Assembly (NCBI GenBank): GCA_020631975.1
Contig: JACKGO010000001.1
Span: 67,409-131,408 of the forward strand
Source: Candidatus Nomurabacteria bacterium
GTDB lineage: Bacteria > Patescibacteriota > Saccharimonadia > Saccharimonadales > CAIOMD01
Length of the DNA: 64,000 nt
Direction of reading: 5' to 3'
Part shown: in pieces, positions 6,637 to 56,713 of the stretch
Position numbering within the stretch: the first letter of the stretch is position 1
How the letters are laid out: every line of letters begins with the position of its first letter
Notes under the pieces: model-generated
Databases searched by the model: none
Seen by the model: only the letters and a program-made list of their open reading frames with translations
Told to the model about the DNA's origin: nothing
Program-made: the position numbers and the translations under genes

Positions 6637-6725
6637 TATAACGTACTGTACCGTATTAGTATGTACACTATCTCCAGCTTATATAGGGGTTACATTATGT
6701 TCATCTGATATAATAAACAGCGTCT

Positions 6726-7793
6726 ATGCTTTCTAAGCGCGTAAAAATAATTATCAATGCCGTTACAATCATTGCTCTTATTGTGCTAATTTACTTTTCT
6801 TGGCCACAAATTACCGAAGGCCTCAAAGAAATAGGTGGGGCAAAGTGGTCTATTATTGCGCTAATGATACCGCTGCAAGTATTTAACTTTTTTGCAGTTG
6901 GCATGATTTATTACAGCTATTTTACAAGTCATCGCCATAGCCGTGTCACAAAAAAGAATATGTTTAAGGTAGCGCTAGAGCTTAACTTTGTAAACCATGT
7001 GTTCCCAAGTGGTGGGGTGGCTGGGTTTACGTATTTGGGGTACAGAATGAAGCACTACGGTGTGGCGGTATCACGCACAACACTTGCACAGTCATTACGC
7101 TTTGCCTTAACCTTTATAAGCTTTCTGATACTACTTTTTTTTGGGTTATTTATGCTGAGCTTTGGTGATCGCAGTAGTGGTGTAACGTTATATATTGGTT
7201 TATCAATTGCATTTTTGACTTTATTTGGCACGATGCTCGCCGTGTTTATCATTAGTGATGAAGGCCGTATAAAAGCCTTTACAGCTTTTTTGCCACGGTT
7301 AGTAAATGCGGTCCTAAAGCCATTCAAAAAAAAGCGTGGCAATGCCATAGACCTAGAAAAAATCGAAAAGCTGTTTGGCGATCTGCACACCGATTACGAA
7401 GAACTTATGAAGGACAGAAAAAAGCTAAAAAAGCCCTTTATGTGGGCCTTGCTTGTAAATATTTCTGAGGTGCTCACCATATATTTAGCATATTTGGCCT
7501 TAGGGCAAGTGGTGAATCCTGGCGCGGTGATACTGGCGTATTCGGTTGCTTCTTTTGCTGGTTTGGTATCTATACTACCCGGTGGTATAGGTGTATACGA
7601 GGCGCTTATGACCACTACATTAGCCGCATCTGGCGTACCAAAGGCGTTAGCGCTTTCTGCAACACTAATTTATCGAATTTTCACAATGATTATTTTTGTA
7701 CCAACTGGCTTTATTTTGTACCAACTGGCATTAAGAAAAGGCGAAACGGAACATATATCTCGCGATGCAACCGTTAGTACTGACACCAACTGA
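6726..7793 (+). CDS. Polytopic membrane protein, UPF0104 / lysyl-phosphatidylglycerol-synthase-TM (flippase-like) family
   Basis: About 8 TM helices and a conserved C-terminal PGGIGVYEA motif typical of this family. It is a paralog of 16007-16948. Confidence 0.6.
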   Translation: MLSKRVKIIINAVTIIALIVLIYFSWPQITEGLKEIGGAKWSIIALMIPLQVFNFFAVGMIYYSYFTSHRHSRVTKKNMFKVALELNFVNHVFPSGGVAGFTYLGYRMKHYGVAVSRTTLAQSLRFALTFISFLILLFFGLFMLSFGDRSSGVTLYIGLSIAFLTLFGTMLAVFIISDEGRIKAFTAFLPRLVNAVLKPFKKKRGNAIDLEKIEKLFGDLHTDYEELMKDRKKLKKPFMWALLVNISEVLTIYLAYLALGQVVNPGAVILAYSVASFAGLVSILPGGIGVYEALMTTTLAASGVPKALALSATLIYRIFTMIIFVPTGFILYQLALRKGETEHISRDATVSTDTN

Positions 7794-49945: not shown

Positions 49946-50432
49946 CTATTTGCGAATTAAAAATTGGCCGCTTTCAGCGTACGGTATGTGGTCTTTCAAT
50001 ATTTGTGCAAATTTTTTAGGTGCTGATATTTCGTTGAATAGTATATCTTTACCAAGTGTTGGTATAAAGATGGTTACTAAACCAAAGTTAAATAATCTGC
50101 CAAAAAAGCCTTGTTGAACAGACACAGATTGCATATTAGCATAGGGGTAAGAAATTTCTGTTTTGTGAATGATACCCCGTCTGACAACTAATTCGTTTTC
50201 TTTAATATAATAGCCTTCATTTGCCCACTGAGCGACTAAGGTGACGACAGCAGTTATCGCAAGACTTAAGAACATAACAGATAAAATAGCACGCTAGTGT
50301 ATAGCTTTCACCAGCTTGGCTACGTACTTCTACAAGCGCCGTAGAAAGTAACAAATAAATGATTTCTAAGGATATTTCTATAGCAATAATTTTTATTACT
50401 AAACCAGCTGGGCTTCTCCTCACTATATCCAT
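49946..50432 (-). pseudogene. YdbS/YdbT-like membrane protein with bacterial PH (bPH_2) domain, split by a 1-nt frameshift
   Basis: The 71-aa ORF supplies TM1. The 109-aa ORF supplies TM2 and the PH domain (YYIKENELVVRRGIIHKTEISYPYANMQSVSVQQGFFGRLFNFG). The second frame is open upstream to 50293, and joining the frames gives a typical ~156-aa protein. Confidence 0.6.
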
Positions 50433-50584
50433 GGCACCCTTTCTGTTACGTGACTATTACTAACTATAAAGAATTGCTTGTTAAGGACCTGTAAAGCTGC
50501 TACTCAACCTAAGCAAAAAGCTATACCGTATATGAATGCTTGCGCTTGTAATCGCTACTTTTTGAGCACATACTATATAATGGT

Positions 50585-51220
50585 ATGTATAAAAATGCTA
50601 GTAATATAGAATATAAAAAAACAGGCTCTCCAAGACCGATTATGCGTATAGCGACAGGTTTGAACTTTAGCTATGGTATTGTCGAGGCGACCGTAGGGCT
50701 TATGAGCGGTAGTAGCGCAGCATTTGCAAATGGCTGGCATAATTTTCTAGATTCAATTTCACATGGTGCTCATACATCAACACACAAAAAAGAGTTAAGC
50801 GACGAATATGTTCACAAAAAAGTAATGCGAAGGCGTCGATTGGCAGCAACGGCTATTGCAGCTGGGGCTATTATGACTGGCGCGAATGCTGCCCACTCTA
50901 TTGCAAACCCTGAAGAAGCCCCACTAAATGTGAAGGCATTATCAGCTGAACTAGGTGCCGTGGCAATTAACGCTGGGCTTATATATTCTATAAAAAGAAG
51001 AAGAGATGATACCCTTGCATATAAAGACGCCGAGCGGCACTTTTTTGTAGATGGCAGTATGGCAACGGTGACATCTTTTGCGATTGCTGTTACGCCGTAC
51101 TTTCACTATGCCGATGGGATTGGCGGTATGATTGCCACGTCTGCATCTGGTTGGTTAGCCTATAAAACATATCTAGATGATGGCGAACATGCACACGTTA
51201 GTGAACCCAGTGATGTATAG
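50585..51220 (+). CDS. Cation-diffusion-facilitator-like membrane protein (TM domain only)
   Basis: SSAAFANGWHNFLDSISH and AERHFFVDGSMA resemble the CDF TM2/TM5 HxxxD metal-site motifs. No cytoplasmic C-terminal domain is present. Confidence 0.4.
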   Translation: MYKNASNIEYKKTGSPRPIMRIATGLNFSYGIVEATVGLMSGSSAAFANGWHNFLDSISHGAHTSTHKKELSDEYVHKKVMRRRRLAATAIAAGAIMTGANAAHSIANPEEAPLNVKALSAELGAVAINAGLIYSIKRRRDDTLAYKDAERHFFVDGSMATVTSFAIAVTPYFHYADGIGGMIATSASGWLAYKTYLDDGEHAHVSEPSDV

Positions 51221-52733: not shown

Positions 52734-52967
52734 ATGCGTGATATGTATCACCCACCAGTTGGCCACCATGAGTTTGAAGAAAGTATAGAAAAACTATTGG
52801 CAGAAGAGGCCTATGACACAGCTAATAACTACGGCTATTTCACAAGCTGTTACTCTAGCGAAGCAGATCAGATTGTGACAGACATAGTTACTAATAGACT
52901 GGATATCGTAACACCAAATGAATTTGTGTCGGTTCGCTTGCGAGTTTTGCAAGAAGTGACGGTGTAA
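52734..52967 (+). CDS. Hypothetical acidic protein (77 aa); same frame as the next ORF
   Basis: The ORF ends at TAA 52965-52967. The frame stays open for 20 further codons up to the next track ORF. Confidence 0.35.
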   Translation: MRDMYHPPVGHHEFEESIEKLLAEEAYDTANNYGYFTSCYSSEADQIVTDIVTNRLDIVTPNEFVSVRLRVLQEVTV

Positions 52968-53027
52968 CAGCATGGCCAAACAGAGCAAGCGAATATTTCG
53001 CTACAAGCAAACACTAGCTCGCCGACT

Positions 53028-53444
53028 GTGGGTCTGCTACTTGAATATGCACGGCATACGGCGGAGGACCCAGAACCATATGGCACATTGCCAGAGAGTC
53101 AAATACCTTGGGAACCATACCTGTTTATTGGCATAGCCCAAGAAAACGAAGACATGTCTACTAGTGTGCTTAATGCCAAAAATGGCCAAGCATTATCACT
53201 AGATGAACAGCTGGCATGTTTACGTACATTACGGGCGCTACGTTCTAACCTATCAGCGGAAGCAATGTTGAATGACATTTACAGAGATACAGGAGATGAG
53301 TCATATATTGCGGAGCCGCAATACGAATCTAACATAGACGGATTAATACCTTTTGAACCAAGTGATTATATTGACGGTTATGGTTGCTCGGTTTGCGGCA
53401 AAGATTTTACCTATTGTGAGCATCATACAGGTTGGCAAAATTGA
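53028..53444 (+). CDS. Hypothetical acidic protein (138 aa) with C-terminal CxxC...CxHH cluster
   Basis: GCSVCGKDFTYCEHH at the C-terminus. The start is GTG with no SD, so this may be the 3' part of a longer disrupted gene. Confidence 0.4.
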   Translation: MGLLLEYARHTAEDPEPYGTLPESQIPWEPYLFIGIAQENEDMSTSVLNAKNGQALSLDEQLACLRTLRALRSNLSAEAMLNDIYRDTGDESYIAEPQYESNIDGLIPFEPSDYIDGYGCSVCGKDFTYCEHHTGWQN

Positions 53445-53770: not shown

Positions 53771-53850
53771 TGCTGTTCCCCTTTGTATTGGTGTATAAGA
53801 CGGTAGTACTATACAGTAAAATAACTTAGATTACCAGACTATAAAGAATA

Positions 53851-54650
53851 TTAGGGTTGAAACACACCAGCGTACACCTGCCATGCGAGTGCCGATTTAA
53901 CCAGTAGGCTTAAAACAATGTATACTTTTTCGCCGTACAAATAATCGCTCCATTTGCCAATTTTTTTATACTGTAAGTACATGTTAATGGCAAAGCAGTT
54001 AAAGAATATAAATATACTCACGTAGATACCATATACAAACCCAGGTACGCCATTAACGCTATAGTTGTTGGCAGCAAAGACGTAGATACCAAAGGCAATC
54101 CACGGCACAATCCCTAAAATACATCCAATTACAAAACTGAGCCAAGCTGGTTTCTTTTTGCCGGCATTTACGACTTCCATCACCAAGCCCATGAGGTTCA
54201 TGCCGGCTACAAGCGCAAATATCATTACTAAACTCGCTAGATCTTGCATACCACTGAGGAGTGCAATTGCAATCATCATAGTACTTGCGCTAATGCTATA
54301 TTCTATCCAGCGTGCTTTGTTTATACCCTTTTCAAGGTCTGCTATGTATGTTTTTTTATACCACGTTACGATACTAAGGTGTGCCAGTGCGCTCATAAAC
54401 ATAAAGCTGGCTACTAACCAAGCGAAATTTATTGCAAATAGTGTTGTTGTTGCTGGCTCGAGTACCTCTGTTATAGGGTTAAAGCTTAGATAGTTTACGG
54501 TCACATCATAGCTTGCGTCTATGCCAACTGCTTTTACAAGCCATACCATTAAAATGCCCTGCAATAGGTGTAATACAAATGCAACTTTATTGAGTTTTAT
54601 AAGATTCTTAATAGAAATAGAACTTTTTTTGATCGGTTAAATAGTTTCAT
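53851..54650 (-). CDS. Heliorhodopsin (7-TM retinal protein, inverted topology); the 5' end requires a -1 shift at an A7 run or a non-AUG start
   Basis: Collinear by eye with heliorhodopsin 48C12 as I recall it: VLHLLQ (His23), SALAHL (His80), ARWIEYSISAS (counter-ion Glu107), GIVPWIAFGIYV, VPGFVYGIYVSIFIFFNCFA, YLQYKKIGKWSDYLYGEKVYIVLSLLVKSALAW (Schiff-base Lys241). The track ORF starts at TTG 54564. Confidence 0.85.
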
Positions 54651-54698
54651 ACTATATATAGTACAGCATAGGAGTGAACAAACGGTATACGTTTGGTG

Positions 54699-55121
54699 CT
54701 ATAAAATATATGATCTACGAATATACGTTTGTAAACCTTGCAAACCAAAAATGCTATATATTTCTGGTTCGATTTCTTCTAATAGCTTCCAAAATGACTC
54801 TATACGGTGCGTGGTCCATTCTCTAGGTGATTGTAAAATCTTATCACCATGTACAATTATGCCACTGCCATCAGCTTCTACTATTGTTACTAAAAAACTT
54901 TGAGTATTTTCGTAGCATGTGTCTGCCCCGATACGTTTAGCTGTAACGATAAAATCACGTGGCTGCAGCCCACTTGCTACTGTTATACATCGCTTTGCAT
55001 CGTCTATATGCACAGGCATGTCATCGGGGTCTACGGCAATGGCTCCCTTTCTGATGGTAATGTTATCTTCCGTGTCTAAGTGCCAAATATGGCTTGTTTC
55101 AAACATTACTATATTATACAA
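54699..55121 (-). CDS. Hypothetical protein (140 aa), upstream of and co-directional with the heliorhodopsin
   Basis: ORF 48 nt upstream of the heliorhodopsin ATG. No family was recognised. Confidence 0.5.
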   Translation of the reverse strand: MYNIVMFETSHIWHLDTEDNITIRKGAIAVDPDDMPVHIDDAKRCITVASGLQPRDFIVTAKRIGADTCYENTQSFLVTIVEADGSGIIVHGDKILQSPREWTTHRIESFWKLLEEIEPEIYSIFGLQGLQTYIRRSYIL

Positions 55122-55201: not shown

Positions 55202-56713
55202 ATGAATGCACCGTACGCTCACTATAACTATCCACCGCAGTTCCCTGTTGTCATGGGTACAGAAGAAGAAACTGCTTTAATGGTTAACGTTACTGGTGAA
55301 TGGGAGCAGCCGTACTATTTTGCCGCTCACTTAGATATGTTTATTCCTACATCTTTATGTTTTGTAGCAAACCACTATAGCGGTGTGTATTTGCAAAATG
55401 GGGGCCTCGTCTATGCAGGAGGCTCTTGTGATGAAGAGTCTTCAGGAGAGCGCCATATAGATAACATAGAAAGAGCGACACCTGAATGCGTAAACCCACA
55501 ACAGACGGCTATGTATATTCAGGCGAATGAACATTTAATGGAAGATATGGCAGAGCTCTACGGCCAGCACACCGCCGAGAAATTCGGGAAAGAAGCTATT
55601 ATTAGAATACAACGTAGAGTAGTAGATTCACAGGGTAATAGAAAGGGTTGCCACGATAATTTTGCCTACCCATACGGGGACAATTACGATCGTGGTTACG
55701 ATTACAGACTACCTTTAGCTGGGTATTTAGCTACCCGCTCATTTTTAACGGGTGCCGGCTACGTAAACCAAGATCATGAATTTAGATTTAGCCAAAAAAT
55801 TGATGGCTTGAAAGCGGTCACAGGCTATTCCTATGCAGGATATATGTACAGAACAGTTGGCGCCCAAGGCATTTCTGAAACAGCCCAAAACAGATTAGAA
55901 ATACGTTGTAGCGACATTAACATATCAACATGGGCAACCATGATGCGCTTAGGTGGTGTTGCATTGCTTATGGCCGCTTTAGAAACTCCGCTTAAACAAG
56001 ATATTTTAGGTCATTTATCATATCAGAGTGATGATGTAGCCTATGCTGAGCAAAATAACGCAATCCCAATGGGTAAAGATGGAATGATGTGCCCAGACGA
56101 GCAAACCTACGAAGTCTTAGACTTTCAAGAGCGACTGGCAGATATGTTTTTAGACGACTTGCAACTGTATACCGATTTGCCCCTTGACTACTACTATATT
56201 GCCCAAGAATTAAAAGTATTTTGCCAAGATTTTCGTCAGGTCCTCGCCAATAGGCAACCACTAAGTATTTTAGCTGATCGTGCTGATTGGGCAGCAAAGT
56301 TTACAAAAATATTAGCGAAAGATGCAGAAGCTGGCAGTGCAAGAGGATATTATGAGCACGCTCGTGACGATATGTTATTTGACTACATAGGTATCACAGC
56401 ACAGCCCGATGGCAGCGTGGTCCGCAAAAAAGGCTACGGATTCAAGATGCGTGATAATGGTGCATTTAAAAAAAGTTTGCACCCTAAGGATATAGCGAAT
56501 GCCTACTATAATGCTCCATTACAAACGCGAGCTAATATAAGAAGTACATTTATCAAAGATTACGCAGTAGAAGAATGTACGTGGGATTCTGTATCTGTAC
56601 TTCTAAAAAGCGGTGTCGGTAGGCGTATAGATTTATCAGACCCTACCAGAGCAACTGTACATAAACAAGCATCAAAAGAACTCGCCGAAAAAGCTCAACC
56701 ACGCGACGAGTAA
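55202..56713 (+). CDS. Highly divergent PafA/Dop-family (Pup ligase / depupylase-deamidase, carboxylate-amine ligase) homolog
   Basis: Ordered motif blocks are shared with PafA: MGTEEET, LQNGGLVY, ERATPEC, DSQGNRKGCHDNF, ATRSFLTGAGYV, FSQKIDG, RLEIRCSDINIS, ADWAAKF and QTRANIR. The RDEPHAD block is not recognisable. Confidence 0.65.
   Translation: MNAPYAHYNYPPQFPVVMGTEEETALMVNVTGEWEQPYYFAAHLDMFIPTSLCFVANHYSGVYLQNGGLVYAGGSCDEESSGERHIDNIERATPECVNPQQTAMYIQANEHLMEDMAELYGQHTAEKFGKEAIIRIQRRVVDSQGNRKGCHDNFAYPYGDNYDRGYDYRLPLAGYLATRSFLTGAGYVNQDHEFRFSQKIDGLKAVTGYSYAGYMYRTVGAQGISETAQNRLEIRCSDINISTWATMMRLGGVALLMAALETPLKQDILGHLSYQSDDVAYAEQNNAIPMGKDGMMCPDEQTYEVLDFQERLADMFLDDLQLYTDLPLDYYYIAQELKVFCQDFRQVLANRQPLSILADRADWAAKFTKILAKDAEAGSARGYYEHARDDMLFDYIGITAQPDGSVVRKKGYGFKMRDNGAFKKSLHPKDIANAYYNAPLQTRANIRSTFIKDYAVEECTWDSVSVLLKSGVGRRIDLSDPTRATVHKQASKELAEKAQPRDE

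Follow-up and report, generated by a model that had tools for sequence, protein, structure and literature searches.

Runs of A are prone to both ribosomal and transcriptional slippage, as is known from dnaX, from the IS3 family and from the poly(A) rescue that takes place in insect endosymbionts. In the programmed -1 frameshifting of E. coli dnaX (on A AAA AAG) and of orfAB in IS3/IS911, an A-rich heptamer of the X XXY YYZ type is set in the zero frame within a short overlap, and a hairpin, a pseudoknot or an internal Shine-Dalgarno (SD) sequence acts as stimulator. Transcriptional slippage rescues genes with a frameshift lesion in a poly(A) run, e.g. pseudogenes of Buchnera and Blochmannia, dnaX of Thermus and mxiE of Shigella; it is usually efficient at runs of about 9 residues or more, and the out-of-frame state is fixed in the known cases. 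A different outcome is found in the phase-variable contingency genes of Campylobacter, Helicobacter, Neisseria and Mycoplasma, where a change of +/-1 in a poly-G or poly-A run at the 5′ end switches the reading frame and where the gene concerned is, for instance, one for a surface antigen or for restriction-modification.

Heliorhodopsins (HeR) have already been described in Saccharibacteria and in other bacteria of the Candidate Phyla Radiation (CPR). The stretch of 64,000 nucleotides analysed here, called the window, comes from a Saccharimonadales bacterium, itself a member of the CPR, and contains on the minus strand, at 53851-54650 (800 nt), a clear homolog of heliorhodopsin 48C12 (PDB 6su3) and of the heliorhodopsin of a Thermoplasmatales archaeon (PDB 6is6), with PDB matches of 1.8e-68 and 2.6e-53. 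Unlike in these two proteins, the first helix encoded in the window is unreachable from a canonical start codon, and the cause is the contraction by 1 nt of a tract of A residues, which leaves a 7-A, out-of-frame allele. In our opinion this is probably a real allele that was generated by slippage, and not a programmed recoding signal.

Reading frames and identity of the heliorhodopsin gene

The ATG at 54648-54650 opens a frame of 17 codons (ATG AAA CTA TTT AAC CGA TCA AAA AAA GTT CTA TTT CTA TTA AGA ATC TTA), which is closed by the TAA at 54597-54599. The HeR frame, which is -1 relative to this ATG, reads TAA CCG ATC AAA AAA AGT TCT ATT onward; its upstream TAA is at 54637-54639, and the HeR body is open from 54636 down to the stop at 53851-53853. 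Between the upstream TAA and the TTG at 54564-54562, the HeR frame contains no ATG, GTG or TTG. Since the frame is closed upstream, rescue through a change of frame is possible only within 54636-54600, the overlap that is open in both frames, and it is there that the poly(A)7 tract is found (54624-54630, codons 7-9, a run of seven T on the plus strand), in the phase (TC)A AAA AAA with respect to the ATG frame. Addition of one A, or a -1 shift, converts the window gene into MKLFNRSKKSSISIKNL..., a protein of 266 amino acids that is identical over its 266 residues to the public protein P0130. The peptide of the rescued frame is MKLFNRSKKSSISIK and that of the OFF frame is MKLFNRSKKVLFLLRIL. The original prediction had described this two-frame arrangement, the lack of a canonical start before the TTG and the full-length product expected from a -1 slip or one extra A; each of these points, with all the coordinates, was confirmed.

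That the protein is a heliorhodopsin is clear from the one-A-added version, which gave 286 bits with the Pfam family PF18761 against a cut-off of 26.7 (E=2.3e-85; profile positions 2-241 of 242), matched the heliorhodopsins of the PDB with E = 1.8e-68 to 3.3e-42 and retrieved 5,508 relatives in a database search. The earlier claim that homology extends upstream of the TTG at 54564 also held, the alignment starting at residue 18 for PF18761, at residue 10 for 6is6 and at residue 12 for 6su3 (48C12). Like 48C12 and the Thermoplasmatales protein, the window protein keeps the conserved His, Glu and Lys residues: H28, H91, E117 and K252, which we take to be equivalent to H23, H80, E107 and K241 of 48C12, are invariant among 18 close orthologs (alignment A2) and are all four present in the window. 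The closest relatives begin with M-[K/S/N]-x-F-[K/N]-[K/R]-S, which argues that the ATG at 54650 is the ancestral start; given these N-termini, the read-through seen in 8-A alleles and the -10-like box upstream, it is probably also the only real one. The internal TTG at 54564-54562 and ATG at 54551-54549 are the starts chosen by gene callers for A7 alleles, with products of 237 and 232 amino acids, respectively; either start removes the greater part of helix A, and the shorter product is also without the conserved His28. With the ATG and the HeR body in different frames, the A7 allele of the window does not encode the whole seven-helix protein in one frame from a start codon; the 23 A8 alleles described below do.

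As to the surroundings of the gene, a reading frame of 135/140 aa without Pfam match (54699-55121, minus strand) is located 48 nt upstream of HeR and stands beside it in all conspecific contigs. The HeR operon is adjoined by a gene for a Pup-ligase family protein of 503 aa (55202-56713, plus strand; PF03136, E=1e-30), which every conspecific contig also keeps; genes for pupylation are known above all from Actinobacteria. The gene order differs in the sister species, where a thioredoxin/DsbD pair lies upstream of HeR.

Tract length among assemblies of the same species

The best match to the window protein, P0001, is 99% identical, has 266 aa and shares its N-terminus with the one-A-added window protein. 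The three contigs encoding it, from three short-read samples, have A8 and show no further difference from the window in the roughly 200 nt surrounding the start; in the 9.5 kb alignment between the window and these contigs (99.2% identity), A8 versus A7 is the only homopolymer indel. A JGI metagenome contig, on the other hand, has A7 as in the window, yet is 8 SNPs apart from it. At the protein level, the 90%-identity cluster counts 15 members and six protein haplotypes, five of which come in two forms, one of 266 aa and one of 232 aa, the latter starting at the internal ATG. The window haplotype corresponds to an NCBI protein labelled ‘Candidatus Nomurabacteria bacterium’. Three NCBI records of the cluster are 260, 255 and 249 aa long, the NCBI annotation pipeline PGAP having placed their starts at ATC, ATT and ATA, respectively, and a fourth one is a partial protein of 196 aa beginning at TTG. 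Looking up the exact sequences of the 255-aa protein and of the 237-aa TTG product of the window gave no record.

DNA was fetched for the main members of the cluster. Forty-two further assemblies belong to this species, at about 99% DNA identity; 23 of them have A8 and 19 have A7, and the correspondence with the protein forms is complete: all 23 fetched loci of the 266-aa form are A8 and all 19 of the 232-aa form are A7. Neither A6 nor A9 was seen among the 42. The window and the NCBI metagenome-assembled genome GCA_041402185.1 (locus L124), both A7, are counted outside this set; in the latter, the ATC is annotated as the start. The 42 may include samples that were assembled more than once, by different pipelines, so the number of independent observations is lower than 42, but one pipeline alone contributes at least 14 distinct BioSamples, 5 with A7 and 9 with A8. 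Both lengths occur in several unrelated SRA, JGI and NCBI sources, A7 for example in SRR6747800, SRR776449, SRR7638748, SRR20247625 and JGI 3300009775, and A8 in SRR6747799, SRR6747778 and SRR14597287. Related loci bear HKST or HK-STAS names, the HK-STAS genomes being from Shatin activated sludge and assembled from Nanopore and Illumina reads. An exact-pattern scan for the A7/A8 context in the GTDB species-representative genomes gave zero matches, which indicates that the species is absent from that set.

The original prediction held that eight A's in the reads would reduce the case to a simple assembly error. Eight A's were indeed found in 23 assemblies, but seven recur in 19 others and in the NCBI genome. 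One could still suppose that the true genome has A8 and that the A7 of the window is a homopolymer miscall, e.g. in a long-read or hybrid assembly, since undercalled homopolymers are the classic long-read error; moreover, L124 shows many single-base indels relative to the window elsewhere. The organism label and accession range of the NCBI protein that shares the window haplotype also recall those of the HK-STAS genomes, so that the window may come from such a hybrid assembly. Against this, the 19 other A7 assemblies come from several pipelines and projects, the tract state follows small haplotype groups, and over 10.8 kb no other homopolymer distinguishes the window from its relatives. A miscall is, on this evidence, a very improbable explanation. 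The controls provide an additional argument: nine other A/T runs of at least 7 residues in the same 10.8 kb showed no length variant in 127 locus-by-tract observations, as compared to 19 of 42 for the HeR tract (Fisher p = 7e-14), which argues against a generic homopolymer error. The other indels detected in the 10.8-kb neighbourhood, all loci considered, leave the length of every A/T run of at least 7 residues unaltered. We also scanned for other genes broken by a homopolymer, looking for ORFs merged by +/-1 edits; three sites were flagged (four site/edit combinations), all of them 6-A runs, by a method that is crude and insensitive to 5′-proximal events, the HeR site itself going unflagged. 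In our view the A7 of the window is probably not an assembly error and, judging from the assemblies compared, represents genuine natural variation that is common in a wastewater Saccharimonadales population.

How the two lengths are distributed over the genetic backgrounds can be followed in an 810-nt core, which has 12 DNA haplotypes. Three of them carry both tract lengths, including the two commonest ones (9 A8 and 3 A7 for one, 5 A8 and 4 A7 for the other), while tract length is uniform within each of five haplotype groups of three members, as expected for a heritable allele and not for random noise. The tract is almost unlinked to the common SNPs (r2 ≤ 0.18), and divergence is no greater between loci of unlike tract length than between loci of like length; over 6.1 kb, the window is closest to L027, which has A8 and differs by 4 SNPs. 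However, SNP pairs show all four gametes among themselves and the informative SNPs are at least 500 nt away from the tract, so that linkage is compatible with recurrent slippage as well as with one old deletion spread by recombination. In the coding region, the 43 alleles compared differ by four synonymous and four non-synonymous polymorphisms, and none of the 20 A7 alleles (those of the 19 assemblies plus the window) has a second lesion, the downstream ORF keeping all the key residues. These data indicate that the A7 alleles are either of recent origin, or quick to revert, or still of use; an intact downstream ORF would be expected as well if A7 were still expressed or quickly switching back.

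Rapid reversion would correspond to a contingency locus, in which A8 and A7 interconvert at high rate by slipped-strand mispairing and HeR is turned ON and OFF in a heritable and reversible way. Such phase variation is a stronger version of the explanation that we prefer and not a contradiction of it. It would account for several of the observations made above, namely the near-equal frequency of the alleles (19 versus 23), the presence of both states on three identical 810-nt haplotypes, the weak linkage with nearby SNPs, the A8 state of the nearest neighbour, the lack of a second lesion in any A7 allele and the restriction of the variation to this tract (0 of 127 in the controls). As in known contingency genes, there is a mononucleotide run at the 5′ end of the ORF where +/-1 switches the frame, and the two lengths are found side by side within one species, on backgrounds that are nearly the same. 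Other features fit less well. The scatter of A7 over the haplotypes may be explained without recurrent mutation, by recombination or by chimeric consensus sequences, as the four-gamete SNP pairs indicate, and the small haplotype groups are uniform. Unlike in contingency genes, only two lengths were seen, and even A8 is short for a poly-A phase-variation tract. The sister species (86% amino-acid identity) has TCT AAA GCA ACA at this position and therefore no tract, from which it follows that the A8 tract is recent and derived; upkeep of the tract by selection was thus not seen in this related lineage. Finally, the gene in question codes for a light sensor of a CPR bacterium, and not for a surface antigen or for restriction-modification. 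On balance, phase variation seems to us possible, but not the likeliest reading of these data.

The HeR tract is not the only polymorphism that breaks an ORF in this neighbourhood; counting it, the population has three of them within 5 kb. The convergent neighbour of HeR (52734-53444, plus strand, 236 aa, no Pfam family) has in the window a CAA to TAA change at codon 78 (site 52965); L024, L027 and L036 share this nonsense allele, the C is intact at ten other loci, and the distribution is independent of the HeR tract state. In L035 the equivalent gene is disrupted differently, by a duplication of about 100 nt. A minus-strand gene with a bPH_2 domain (PF03703), at about 50289, has an indel polymorphism of 2 nt or 4 nt (GCGCGAGC, GCGTGC or GCGCGCGTGC), which splits the 162-aa gene into parts of 71 and 109 aa in the window-type allele, also carried by L024 and L027; it is intact in L034 and L036. 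An insertion sequence with a gene for a 309-aa transposase (HTH_32 and rve_3 domains) lies about 16 nt 3′ of the HeR stop (window about 53831-53840) in L007, L025, L026, L030 and L031; the window does not have it, and many contigs break at this point. About 96 nt of the insertion-bearing L025 locus match the window at 6679-6774 with 99% identity, and a copy or remnant of the element may thus lie elsewhere in the window. The dense single-base indels of L124 are located between 13500 and 14600 of that locus (window about 50000-51100), where a 211-aa gene is broken into 56-aa pieces; they reflect either errors of long-read sequencing at this place or decay of the gene in the strain concerned.

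Orthologs, start signals and the slippery heptamer

Comparison of run length and frame among orthologs had been put forward as a check on the locus. Besides the 23 in-frame conspecific alleles, HeR is encoded in a single frame in 80 out of 80 species representatives, with an in-frame canonical start, mostly ATG, at least 14 residues before the conserved His. Truncated HeR forms are rare in ten other HeR clusters. The two that we looked into were unrelated to poly-A, as one of them had lost a C near codon 40 and the other was a gene call at a contig edge, and a parallel poly-A event was thereby ruled out for these.

The sequences preceding the ATG are also conserved among orthologs. In loci L044-L123, for a region that corresponds to 54651-54668 of the window, 46 of 69 HeR orthologs have, 6-7 nt ahead of the ATG, a TAnnnT box that often takes the form TGnTAnAGT and thus resembles an extended -10 element; the spacing is exactly 6 nt in 39 of them and 7 nt in the other 7. 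An SD-like motif is present in only 11 of the 69. In the window, the -10-like hexamer is TACTAT (54658-54663, minus strand), 7 nt 5′ of the ATG, and this hexamer is kept at a spacing of 6-7 nt in the sister species and in L045-L047. This suggests that the HeR mRNA is leaderless, starting at or beside the AUG, in the window as well as in HeR genes of Saccharimonadales generally, the hexamer being part of the putative promoter. The suggestion is based on the comparative conservation of the box and not on promoter scanning; a scan with the sigma-70 consensus reported instead TTCACT-16-TATAGT at 54678-54651, with a number of hits not above that in shuffled sequences. A window-wide check gave only a weak peak at this spacing, so the arrangement is not a genome-wide property.

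These signals bear on another way of expressing the A7 allele, which is initiation, or reinitiation after termination, at the ATC at 54633-54631, the ATT at 54618-54616 or the ATA at 54600-54598. A nearly complete HeR of 249-260 aa, with helix A and His28, would then be made. PGAP did place starts at these codons in sibling A7 records, in MEZ6330764.1 (260 aa), MCB9817020.1 (255 aa) and HPR10462.1 (249 aa), and the ATA overlaps the stop of the 17-codon frame as ATAA, a layout that would suit reinitiation. But three different starts for the same DNA are better seen as a workaround by the annotation than as evidence. None of the three codons is preceded by an SD-like motif, the orthologs all rely on the upstream canonical start, and AUC, AUU and AUA are very poor initiators in the bacteria that have been studied. 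Furthermore, a leaderless mRNA depends on a 5′-terminal AUG, and the putative leaderless transcript would itself argue against internal AUC, AUU or AUA starts. We regard initiation at these codons as very improbable.

Recoding of the A7 allele would proceed either by -1 ribosomal slippage on A AAA AAA or by RNA polymerase stuttering that adds an A, and would result in a low, perhaps useful level of HeR. The A AAA AAA heptamer is a genuine slippery site and, as in dnaX and IS3/IS911, it lies in the zero frame and within a short overlap (54636-54600) that is open in both frames; a -1 shift would yield exactly the P0130 protein, and the A7 allele is common and without secondary damage. The phase of the heptamer, to which attention had been drawn, is therefore correct, but it is not independent evidence of design, because it is the automatic outcome of deleting one A from TCA AAA AAA AGT. 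Other hallmarks of programmed frameshifting are missing: the 94 nt 3′ of the heptamer fold at -11.8 kcal/mol versus a mean of -13.6 for shuffled sequences (z = +0.67), i.e. no stimulatory hairpin or pseudoknot is found there, and there is no GGAGG-like motif in ATGAAACTATTTAACCGATC and no SD-like stimulator upstream of the heptamer. Unlike in dnaX and IS3/IS911, the two-frame layout is not conserved, all the orthologs and the A8 allele, i.e. half of the conspecific alleles, being single-frame. As for transcriptional slippage, the locus shares with the known rescued genes a lesion in a poly(A) run and a small, AT-leaning genome, but the run is only 7 A's long, below the length usual for efficient slippage, and the out-of-frame state is polymorphic here instead of fixed. 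Any rescue would probably amount to a few percent at most, and we consider it unlikely that the A7 allele is functional by recoding. Out of the four alternatives initially contemplated, variation of the homopolymer length is thus the one borne out, A8 and A7 coexisting in the population; conserved programmed -1 frameshifting and AUC/AUU initiation found no support.

Meaning for heliorhodopsin genetics

The following scenario seems to us the most plausible. A Lys-Lys-Ser stretch, encoded by AAA AAA AGT after a TCA codon, would have produced a run of 8 A's in this species, the in-frame form TCA AAA AAA AGT, from which the 266-aa protein is read starting at the ATG at 54650. Replication slippage would then have deleted one A in a sizeable fraction of the population, moving the HeR body into the -1 frame. 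In A7 cells, ribosomes would start at the AUG at 54650 and terminate at 54599-54597, so that full-length HeR would not be made at normal levels; A7 would accordingly be an OFF, or strongly reduced, allele. In terms of annotation, the gene of the window is best treated as a frameshifted allele of a 266-aa heliorhodopsin, and the TTG, ATG, ATC, ATT and ATA starts found in public records are workarounds. The locus also provides a cautionary example for recoding scans, since the loss of a single base from a Lys-Lys tract can by itself, and trivially, leave a slippery heptamer in perfect phase.

The physiological role of HeR is still debated. With about half of the assemblies having a 5′ frameshift on otherwise identical backgrounds, this population offers a natural knockout series, in which the frequency of A7 and A8 could be tracked against light exposure, time or host. 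A more speculative idea, to which we give rather little credence at present, is that the poly(A) tract is a working switch, reversibly ON/OFF or ON/low, for HeR in an episymbiotic CPR bacterium, the A7 state perhaps leaking some full-length protein by ribosomal or transcriptional slippage. Our search of the literature for frameshifted or phase-variable heliorhodopsins, and for phase variation encoded by Saccharibacteria, found nothing relevant. As far as that search shows, such a switch, if it is real, would be the first phase-variable rhodopsin and the first contingency locus of Saccharibacteria, and it would give natural isogenic HeR+ and HeR- populations with which the function of heliorhodopsins could be probed.
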